64,000 nt of DNA from Escherichia coli (GTDB lineage: Bacteria; Pseudomonadota; Gammaproteobacteria; Enterobacterales; Enterobacteriaceae): NCBI RefSeq assembly GCF_001677475.2, contig NZ_CP015229.1; one strand, given 5' to 3'. Below, piece after piece: positions 15,359-18,300 of this stretch. A program made the position numbers and the translations under genes. A model generated the notes under the pieces. The model made no database searches, was not told where the DNA came from, and saw only the letters and a program-made list of their open reading frames with translations. Positions within the stretch are counted from its first letter, which is position 1. Each line of letters opens with the position of its first letter.

Positions 15359-18300
15359 TCAGAACGACCAGTTCACACCAGCTACCGCGTTCCACGGGGA
15401 TTCCACACCGGCACCATGGCTATACCCCACCCCGAGATGCCCGCTTAACGTACTGCTGAATGAGGCTTTAATACCTGCCTGGTATATTCCACGTCTGCCC
15501 GACAAATCATTGACGAAATTACCGTCATTATTCACTTTAACCCGGTTATCATCGACAAATTCTTTGCGCACAGCCGCCTTCAGCCACGGCTCAACTTCCA
15601 TACCGTTCCCCAGACGCATGTTGTAACTCAGCGTTGCGCCCAGTTCACGATATATACTGCGGGTATCGACTGATTTCGATTCCATGCCATTGGATAAATG
15701 ATATTCGGGGTTATCAGCGGTGAACCCCGTTAACGATGCATACGGCGTCAGGTTCCAGTTACCATCGGTAAATCGCATCCCGGTTTCAATGTGACCGCCC
15801 AGCCCGTTGCTGCGATAACTGCCGTTGGCGGCTCCACCGCTGCTCATTTTACCGGCTACGTTACTTTCAAAGCGGTTCAGCTTCACGATACCGTCCAGAT
15901 AGAAACCACTTTCATGTTCCCAGCTGGCATAGCCCCCCAGAGAATAACTGCCCACACTGCCATGTCCTCCACGATCAAAACCGATATGTGAATGGGAATA
16001 ACCCATAAAAGCGCCCAGCGTCGCAATCCCCTCAGGAATATCATTACGGCTATCGATCCCCACCGTCATTCCGGTCAGCGTCTGCTCAAACCCGGCACCC
16101 GCATCGGTGGTGACATTATTACGGGTGTTATACGTCGACCCCCAGACATTATTGTTGTGTGGACTCGCTTTCATTATGTTCAACCGCTCGCGAATACTGT
16201 TTAGCTCAGCATCAAATACCAACGGTAATGTTGCTGCCATATTGAGTACGGCTGCCGTAGAAGGCGTGATGCGTTTCTCCGGGACGGGTGTCGGCGTTGG
16301 ATCGGGAGTCGGGTCTGGTTTCGGATCCGGTTTTGGGTCTGGTTTTGGATCCGGTTTCGGATTTGGGTTGGGGTCCGGGTTGGGTTTGACATCATTGGTC
16401 AGGTTCCAGTTGCTGTTGCCGTCGCTTTTCAGGACATACTCATAGGTCCCAAGATCAACGAAACCGCCGGTATTACCCAGCGTAAACGAAGCATCCCCTC
16501 CCCCTGTTTTCACCAGCGTCATCGCGTCGTCAGACTGAGGGCTGACGCCGGTATCCTGAACAAAGATTTTAAAATTGCCAGTGGCGTTGTTGTTGACGAC
16601 CAGTTGATCGCCCCGGGAGCCTGCAACGTTGGTATGCAGGTAGAAATTACCGCTGCCGGAAAGTTCACTGGTGATCAGCGTATTGTAGATACCGTTAGTT
16701 GTGGCAGGCGCTGCTGTTTGTGCTGATAAATAAACATCACCGTCGTTGAGGAGCAAACTGTTTACTCTATATTCGCAGTTGCTGGTGCCTGCACAGGAAT
16801 TATTGCTGTTAAGCCAGACACTGCCCCGACTGGCAGCCGTCAGGTCGGCAAGCGTCGTATCGACGCCATTTCCGATAGTTAATGTCGCGCTATCGGTAAT
16901 CCGGACCACCCCTTCAAGTTTAACTGGCGTAACATTATCCCGTGGCGTCATTAACGACAGGCTTCCTGTCGCGCCACTGACCGATGCATCCGCCAGCGTA
17001 CCTGCGTAGACGATTGCCGTCCCGCCAGTGACCTGGAGATCTTCTGCCCGGGCCAGAGCCTGAAACTCATCTTTTGACCGCCCAAGGGTATATTGCCCGC
17101 CAGAGTTAACCTTTGTGGCGGAGTCCTGACCCAGGTTTTGCATTGCCCCACCCTTGCCAACCGTGGAGTCGCGAGCTTCGGTACCTGCTAATACCAATAA
17201 ATTACCGCCATTTTCCAGCAACATATTGGTCGCTAAATTGCCGGCAATGGAAAAGGTACCGTACTGGTGAGTACCGCTGATTTCAATACCGTTAGCCGTG
17301 CTCGTCTGGAGAGCGGCACCGCTGTTCTGGACGATATCTGTCGCTTTGCCATTATCGTTGACTGTCAGCGTACCGCCTTCATTGATCGTTGTTTTTATTG
17401 CCTCTCCGTTAGCTGAAACTGTTTGTATTCCGCCGTCGTTAATTGTTGTCTCATTCGCCACCCCCTCGACGATTTGTTCGCCGCCGGTGAGCGTCGTGCC
17501 TGTCGCAGTGGCTTTTGTTTTGACGATCTCCCGCCCGCCCGCATTGACCTGTGTTTTGGCGGAAGTGGTGTCTGACTCCACGGTTAACACGCCGCCATTT
17601 GCCAGCAGGATATTGTTCGCCGCACCCTGCTCGATGCTGAACGCGACGCCATCAGCGCGTGTCCCTGTGACCCGCGTCGCCCTGGTGGTTGCCACCAACG
17701 CGCCCTGGCTACTCTGCTGTATCCCCGTTGCGCTGCCTTTCTCCCGCACGTCGAGTGTGCCGCCGTCATTAAGCACCGAATTTTCAGCCAGACCGCCCTC
17801 ATTAACTACCTGTGAACCGCCATTAATAATGGAACCTTCCGCTGTCCCGTTTGCCATAATTTGTTGTAGGCCAGAGACGATATCGGTATTGATCGCCTTA
17901 CCATAATTCTGAACGGTTTGCGTACCGCCATTGATGTGCGTTTTGTCTGTTGACCCACCATCAACAATTTGTTCACCACTTTCGATATTTGCATCAGTGG
18001 CTAAACCATATACCGTTTGCTTGCCACCTTTGATATTTGCTTTATCAGAAGTGGCACTGGCATATATTGTTTGGGTGCCCGCACTATTGAGTACAGTGCC
18101 AACATCTTTTCCATAAACATCCATTTTGCCGTTGGCATTAATAATCGTATCAACTGCCCGGGAACCAGTGACGACTGTTAATGAGCCAGCGTTTTCCAGC
18201 ACTACATTTTTAGCTTCTGAATTCCTGATGTAGAAAGCATCACCATAACTGTTGGTTCCTTCGATAAGGGTTCCGGAAGTCGTGGAAGCAATTAATGCGC

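Follow-up and report, generated by a model that had tools for sequence, protein, structure and literature searches.

Within the window analysed here, a stretch of 64,000 nucleotides of Escherichia coli DNA, the gene for the autotransporter YpjA contains a short, proline-rich repetitive tract. The original prediction held that this tract is a slippage-prone tandem repeat, that it encodes a Pro-Asp-Lys linker between passenger and beta-barrel, and that it could expand and contract in frame among strains. The locus thus raises the question of whether the repeat is more than compositional bias, whether its length differs between strains, and by which process and how readily that length changes.

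The repeat tract and its place in YpjA/EhaD

The gene that carries the tract was found to be 100% identical to ypjA of E. coli 042 (NC_017626.1; WP_001082378.1, "adhesin-like autotransporter YpjA/EhaD"), and a 401-base query around the tract likewise matched NC_017626.1 at 100% identity; the window thus comes from the chromosome of E. coli 042. The mechanical open reading frame begins at an upstream GTG (20056), and the annotated start is the methionine of MKFMNRTS. A putative N-terminal Sec signal peptide, MKFMNRTSPHYCRRSVLSLLISALIYAPPGMA, was read by eye; a YpjA signal peptide of 29 aa is listed in PMC13101318. Pfam analysis detected nine AIDA repeats (PF16168, E=5e-139), a Pertactin domain (PF03212, aa 1055-1177, E=1e-44) and an Autotransporter beta-domain (PF03797, aa 1261-1500, E=4e-46), the residues of the last two being numbered from the MNRTS start. 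A barrel with a pore-spanning helix, a beta-helical AIDA passenger with an autochaperone domain, and orthology to ypjA identify the product as an AIDA-I-type type Va autotransporter. YpjA is a known adhesin-like autotransporter that also serves as a display scaffold (PMC13101318), and the AC domain of EhaD forms a cluster of its own in PMC5767081. The features of the gene are collected in Table 1.

Table 1. Features of the ypjA/ehaD gene in the 64 kb window
Feature	Position	Strand	Evidence
ypjA/ehaD CDS, AIDA-type type Va autotransporter, 1524 aa, with the tract inside	15359..19933	-	100% match to the annotation of NC_017626.1
Pertactin-like C-terminal passenger (autochaperone) domain	16388..16756	-	PF03212; pertactin and family alignments; AF2 beta strands
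(X-Pro)18 linker tract KPNPDPNPNPKPDPKPDPKPDPKPDPTPDPTPTPVP	16280..16387	-	Translation; Tandem Repeats Finder; lag autocorrelation; AF2 pLDDT
Array core, two 24-bp units AAACCGGATCCR AAACCAGACCCR encoding (KPDP)4	16322..16369 (approximate)	-	Codon-split sequence; longest perfect repeats
Single copy of the 12-bp unit CCCAACCCAAAT (Pro-Asn-Pro-Asn)	16358..16375 (approximate)	-	Codon-split allele alignments
Translocator: EKR-ITPSTAAVLNMAA conserved segment, pore-plugging alpha-helix, 12-strand beta-barrel	15359..16279	-	PF03797; 3QQ2/7AKV alignments; AF2

The maximal (X-Pro)18 run, KPNP...TPVP, comprises aa 1183-1218 of the annotated 1524-aa YpjA. Read on the minus strand, the sequence is ...NWNLTNDV-KPNPDPNPNPKPDPKPDPKPDPKPDPTPDPTPTPVP-EKRITPSTAAVLN..., in which the peptide PNPDPNPNPKPDPKPDPKPDPKPDPTPDPTP is encoded by window positions 16292-16384; the tract-bearing segment was bounded by the anchors AACTGGAACCTGACC and GAGAAACGCATCAC. 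At 16297-16385, Tandem Repeats Finder reported periods of 24 (3.8 copies, 75% matches, score 87) and 12 (4.5 copies, 80% matches, score 66), and the array in the ypjA tract scored highest of the 4 arrays in the whole window. Self-identity of the tract was 0.68 at lag 12 and 0.69 at lag 24, the window mean being 0.27, and among 9,128 windows of equal length none reached the lag-12 value and one reached the lag-24 value. The tandem repeat in ypjA, with its periodicity of 6/12/24 bp, is real and lies well past chance, and the interval first given for it, 16287-16388, was off by only a few bases.

The repeat is imperfect. Because the units of the 042 tract carry synonymous third-position differences, no exact internal repeat exceeds 11 nt; two 11-mers, AAACCGGATCC and AAACCAGACCC, reach this length, and each occurs in 2 copies 24 nt apart (tract offsets 30/54 and 42/66). 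The core of 24-bp units, with these 11-nt exact repeats, is most likely the slippage substrate of the 042 allele.

Domain searches, structure alignments, the family alignment and an AF2 model all agreed with the predicted location of the tract as a linker between passenger and beta-barrel. The autochaperone domain ends directly upstream of the tract, at a conserved W-x-L motif, and the residues preceding the tract correspond in the alignments to the C-terminal end of the P.69 passenger of pertactin (1DAB/2IOU, ~462-534). The alignment to Vag8 (7AKV) starts just past the tract, and that to the BrkA translocator (3QQ2) starts at AELNSIRERL, the pore helix. The final 463 residues were modelled with AF2 from an alignment of 27 sequences (mean pLDDT 75.6). 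In this model, pLDDT was <50 and secondary structure absent at residues 121-158; the tract corresponds to residues 122-157, and it is flanked by beta-helix strands and then by a helix (163-195) and the barrel strands.

Homologous proteins, mostly partial, were used only for linker comparison and for the AF2 alignment. In the family alignment the tract appears as a variable insertion, bordered by W-x-L, which is invariant, and by the conserved motif ITPSTxAVLNMAA. In YejO-type relatives (~54% identity) W-x-L is followed by ITPST with 0 residues in between; at the position of the tract, E. albertii homologues carry PDPK-type sequence of 17, 29 or 31 residues, and Salmonella relatives have other Pro-rich sequences. 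Since related autotransporters exist without any tract, it is a dispensable and presumably extended spacer that leads from the autochaperone domain to the translocator.

Two database matches were rejected as compositional rather than homologous. These were the sole Pfam match of the tract, to trypanosome procyclin (PF05887; 31 bits, the cut-off being 100), and a PDB match of query residues 70-120 to an AcfD-homologue lipoprotein.

Length alleles across E. coli and unit-exact indels

The tract region was found in 2,524 of 5,426 complete E. coli genomes, and ~2,503 of the carriers had near-full coverage. Lengths were taken from BLAST spans in three spread samples, each a systematic selection of 60 records, for which the 042, K-12 and Sakai alleles served as queries (spans are given relative to the 401-base 042 query), and from 19 ypjA-locus alleles that were read codon by codon. 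With the three samples pooled, spans of 401 bases were obtained from 55 records, 407 bases from 90, 413 bases from 27 (one of these being 412), 383 bases from 2 and 425 bases from 1; the few rows left over were matches to the paralogue or to IS-truncated copies. The ypjA spans of 383, 401, 407, 413 and 425 are all in frame and differ by multiples of 6. The lone 412 span comes from an O145 pseudogene with a frameshift and a disruption by IS3, and its missing base lies upstream of a normal 413-class tract.

At an identity of at least 99%, which at these query lengths rules out a 6-bp indel, 664 of the ~2,503 records matched the 042 allele, 1283 the K-12 allele and 267 the Sakai allele, so that these three allele classes make up ~88% of the carriers. 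Across the ~2,500 ypjA-bearing complete genomes repeat number is therefore not uniform. An identical repeat number across diverse strains, which had been named beforehand as the finding that would speak against length variation, is not what these genomes show, and the interpretation survives.

Repeats are error-prone in short-read assemblies, and the rare classes rest on few genomes (425 seen once and 383 twice in the samples), which raises the concern that assembly or sequencing errors in a low-complexity region have produced the apparent variation in length. However, the collection consists of complete-genome assemblies, the main classes recur in hundreds of independent genomes, the spans all differ by multiples of 6, and a ypjA tract of 108 nt fits well inside single reads. 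Furthermore, independent assemblies of one strain gave the same span at the paralogous tract described below (443 for THO-008 twice and for STN0717-11; 455 for KK19-02 twice), and an artefact is disfavoured because of this agreement. Such an error is a scarcely credible source of the length classes.

The K-12 allele represents the same gene with 6 additional bp, encoding 1526 aa as compared with 1524 aa in 042. The extra 6 bp are accompanied by many synonymous differences between the 042-type and K-12-type tracts, each of which has its own duplicated 24-bp unit. This gap, the largest among the alleles and an example of much of the variation between strains, reflects an old divergence of haplotypes rather than recent slippage, and it is consistent with turnover of units within each lineage and their spread by recombination.

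Among the 19 inspected ypjA-locus alleles, every polarisable indel corresponded precisely to a repeat unit gained or lost. One copy of the 12-bp unit CCCAACCCAAAT is present in 042, CP131 and PSJ-42, two copies are present in Sakai, O145, ECNB21 and FDAARGOS_943, and three in isolate GPT24-02. Compared with K-12, EP91B carries a tandem duplication of the 6-bp unit CCAGAC (+6 bp), and both 22AR0118 and 1604D011 carry a 24-bp deletion between the 17-nt direct repeats CCAAAGCCAGACCCAAA of the K-12-type allele. The flanks of EP91B and 22AR0118 differ from those of K-12 by 1-2 SNPs in 1,880 nt, whereas the same 24-bp deletion in 1604D011 lies on flanks 28 SNPs from K-12; its presence on two flank backgrounds suggests recurrence or transfer.

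Slipped-strand mispairing or short-homology misalignment would be expected to yield unit-exact indels of this kind. The predicted in-frame expansion and contraction by slipped-strand mispairing was thus borne out by these changes, some of which lie on nearly identical flanks. Tandem units past chance, whole-unit differences between strains and length change on an unchanged background place the ypjA tract among coding VNTRs.

The minE-locus paralogue, recombination and the rate of change

Matches of 557 and 527 bases, which were considered as large expansions of the ypjA tract, were rejected because they proved to come from a paralogue adjoining minE. PGAP gives this paralogue, too, the label YpjA/EhaD. 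Some strains have an intact copy (1,146 aa in ETEC4071), identity to ypjA across the C-terminal ~2.5 kb is 93-96%, and what K-12 retains of the paralogue is a 3' remnant, the pseudogene ycgI. At the same position as the ypjA tract, and between flanking motifs like those of ypjA (NWNLT...DPTPEPTPTPVPEKRI), the paralogue has a near-pure (Asn-Pro)17-38 run of AAYCCR hexamers, composed of (AACCCA AATCCG)n and (AATCCA)n blocks. In the 042 genome only one matching place was found, so the genome of the window is without the paralogue tract.

At least 14 paralogue lengths, all multiples of 6 and covering 17-35 Asn-Pro, were seen among the best 60 matching records, and the tract of EC571 contains 38 Asn-Pro. 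Five pig isolates with 0 SNPs in 1,880 nt of paralogue-flanking sequence had tracts of 236, 266, 272, 284 and 302 nt (27-38 Asn-Pro). Of the two repeats at this site, the purer one slips freely and the imperfect one in ypjA only rarely. One gene family therefore illustrates how repeat purity sets mutability, with an imperfect ypjA tract that is stable within each lineage and a near-perfect paralogue run that is hypervariable; this run is a more notable by-product of the analysis than the ypjA tract itself.

With a paralogue of such similarity, ample substrate for conversion is available, and homologous recombination or gene conversion between alleles or paralogues, rather than slippage, might have made and spread the length differences. 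The ypjA flanks are mosaic and 2-4% divergent among strains, and many synonymous sites, as well as length, distinguish 042-type from K-12-type tracts. The ypjA-locus allele of O157:H7 TR01 has a paralogue-like, all-Asn-Pro tract that is unique in the collection and is probably the product of a conversion or recombination event, so that gene conversion or recombination also contributes to tract variation. However, the changes in EP91B and 22AR0118 are unit-exact and lie on near-K-12 flanks, import of alleles would hardly give rise to a series of one, two and three copies of a single 12-bp unit, and paralogue length differs on flanks with 0 SNPs. Recombination in place of slippage is therefore an unlikely general explanation. 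We conclude that the ypjA tract is very probably an (X-Pro)n spacer whose length changes by whole units through occasional slippage or short-homology misalignment.

The length of the ypjA tract was stable within lineages. In the spread sample, 30 of 30 K-12-type records, which include many laboratory derivatives, had the 407 span and were 99.8-100% identical; more than 20 O145:H28 genomes were all 413; and the O157:H7 records were all 413, with the 267 Sakai-type records (at least 99% identity) invariant. No length variation that would indicate an elevated mutation rate within clones was seen in the K-12 derivatives, O145:H28 or Sakai-type O157. The synonymous differences leave 11-17 nt of exact repeat, and this accounts for a low slippage rate with lengths fixed per lineage. 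The description of the tract as slippage-prone accordingly holds for the unit-exact nature of its changes and overstates their rate, since the repeat is imperfect and its length was invariant in every sampled clonal lineage.

A tandem repeat in the gene of a surface adhesin is the classic setting of a contingency locus, in which rapid change of repeat number would switch YpjA expression (phase variation) or vary it within clones, and the run at the same position of the paralogue is indeed hypervariable. Against this, unit size is 6, 12 or 24 bp, and among the intact ypjA coding sequences sampled all differences are multiples of 6 with the frame kept; the frame-switching length classes of a phase-variable locus were not found among the ypjA spans. 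Since all length changes are multiples of 6, the tract cannot switch ypjA off, and the lone 412 span is explained by loss of 1 base upstream of the tract in a pseudogene already disrupted by an IS. The longest exact repeat is 11 nt, and length is invariant in the three clonal groups described above. A contingency function is very improbable; the ypjA tract is a slow, lineage-bound polymorphism and not a contingency switch.

Many ypjA copies were IS-disrupted or truncated, which hints at weak selection on ypjA.

Precedents and the possible role of spacer length

The closest precedent for the ypjA tract is Bordetella pertactin (Prn), in which polymorphic region 1, (GGXXP)n, and region 2, (PQP)n, vary in unit number among isolates (PMC3279416). 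The autochaperone domain of pertactin is D444-L556, and region 2 comes after it (PMC5767081). Both proteins belong to the type Va autotransporters and contain a short proline-rich repeat whose unit number is polymorphic among isolates. The YpjA tract begins after the segment aligned to 1DAB 466-534, a position comparable to that of region 2, and, like that region, is a polymorphic repeat, rich in Pro, that follows the autochaperone domain directly. Unlike the PQP motif, however, the YpjA motif is built of dipeptides, X-Pro with Lys, Asp, Asn or Thr as X; pertactin is the protein for which epitope status and selection driven by immunity or vaccines are on record; and YpjA, an E. coli adhesin with AIDA repeats, has no demonstrated in vivo role.

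The tract also resembles the coding VNTRs and slipped-strand tracts of other bacterial surface proteins in its head-to-tail short units, in-frame polymorphism and unit-exact changes. It differs from MLVA typing markers and from the (Asn-Pro)n run of the paralogue in that its units are imperfect and few and its rate of change is low and bound to lineages. Alternation of X-Pro with a charged X is shared with the (Glu-Pro)n/(Lys-Pro)n repeats of TonB and the EP repeats of trypanosome procyclin, but these are without homology to the YpjA tract and the likeness is only compositional.

Literature searches returned no paper that pairs "ypjA" with "tandem repeat" and none on polymorphism of this proline-rich linker, and nothing usable on ypjA/ycgH/ycgV/Z3948 was found in the MLVA/VNTR literature amid unrelated MLVA papers. 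The ypjA polymorphism itself may be undescribed, although the phenomenon is well known, and the tract is an ordinary example of a known protein-length polymorphism.

The mechanism that best accommodates these results is as follows. The low-complexity (X-Pro)n spacer is placed by the models and alignments between the last beta-helix rung of the passenger, in the autochaperone/pertactin domain, and the alpha-helix that would traverse the barrel. Replication slippage or short-homology misalignment between its 6-, 12- and 24-bp units would add or remove whole units. Because whole units are gained or lost, each change would remain in frame and would alter only the length of the spacer, by two residues per 6 bp.

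X-Pro spacers such as those of TonB and procyclin form extended polyproline-II-like rods, and a rod of this kind would lengthen by ~0.6 nm per X-Pro. On this basis, the ypjA range of 14-21 units could alter reach by a few nm, and the range of the paralogue by more than 10 nm. The tract may thus act as an extended stalk at the cell surface, flexible or rigid, whose length is either neutral or tunes projection of the adhesin. The simplest functional reading would be a tolerated, near-neutral polymorphism of spacer length, because close relatives are without the tract, AF2 shows no structure in it and many ypjA copies are disrupted.

Alternatively, the X-Pro stalk could be a molecular ruler, its length setting how far the passenger projects through O-antigen or capsule. 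Lineages would then have fixed lengths that match their surface polysaccharide, and the (Asn-Pro)17-38 run of the paralogue would give heritable heterogeneity of reach or antigenicity within lineages. We consider such a ruler improbable; if true, it would amount to an in-frame, "length-variation" counterpart of phase variation.

The polymorphism is of modest importance: a well-known E. coli autotransporter has in-frame, unit-wise length variation in the spacer from passenger to barrel. For practical purposes, allele-calling and adhesin typing tools should expect length differences of 2-8 residues at the tract. Because close relatives are without any spacer, YpjA-based display scaffolds can probably vary or omit it. 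The paralogue run, where present, could serve for high-resolution typing.

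The Asn-Pro run of the minE-locus paralogue and of strain TR01

Outside the window, other E. coli genomes carry a ypjA paralogue adjoining minE/minD, which is the intact form of the ycgI pseudogene remnant of K-12. The linker position of this paralogue is occupied by a hypervariable (Asn-Pro)17-38 run encoded by AAYCCR hexamers, for which 14 lengths were found among the best-matching records from 60 genomes. Pig isolates displayed five lengths of the run despite 0 SNPs in its flanks, and the (Asn-Pro)n run could be used as a typing marker.

At the ypjA locus itself, an all-Asn-Pro allele was found only in E. 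coli O157:H7 strain TR01, the sole record of that kind in the collection. Its tract is paralogue-like in sequence and equal in length to the Sakai allele; the TR01 allele may have arisen by gene conversion or recombination, or may reflect an error in the assembly.

Coordinates of the repeat tracts and of features surrounding ypjA (L0xx, loci from other E. coli genomes)
Feature	Location	Remarks
Paralogue Asn-Pro run	L005, L014, L020-L023, about 1640-1940 in each	
All-Asn-Pro ypjA tract	L019:1639-1797	TR01, ypjA locus; NNVNP(NP)n...TPDPTPTPVP
Gene block	window 1-15000	strain 042, downstream of ypjA; mostly hypothetical
DotA/TraY family gene	window 5027-7687	minus strand
Two further tandem-repeat arrays	window 5161-5279	within DotA/TraY family gene
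DUF5507 pseudogene and recombinase fragment	window 20867-22321 and 23073-23148	just upstream of ypjA

Decay of ypjA in other genomes

The C-terminal region of ypjA was found in only 2,524 of 5,426 complete genomes, and decayed copies were frequent in other genomes (L004, L006, L008, L012, L016 and L018). The gene is interrupted by IS3/IS1203 insertions in O145 RM8995 and F765 and truncated by IS26 in strain L26; the copies in EP91B, FDAARGOS_943 and 22AR0118 lack the N-terminus or are frameshifted.

Genomic surroundings of ypjA

The DUF5507 pseudogene upstream of ypjA contains an internal stop and, together with the recombinase fragment, is followed by a tRNA-Ile gene, a neighbourhood of remnants typical of an island border. 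On the other side, several other strains have the ssrA tmRNA gene some 160 nt past ypjA. The downstream block of 042, whose genes include those for HTH regulators, an H-NS family protein and a member of the DotA/TraY family, has the appearance of an integrative island at the junction on the ssrA side. The arrays in the DotA/TraY family gene have periods of 12 (3.7 copies, score 67) and 23 (2.7 copies, score 80).
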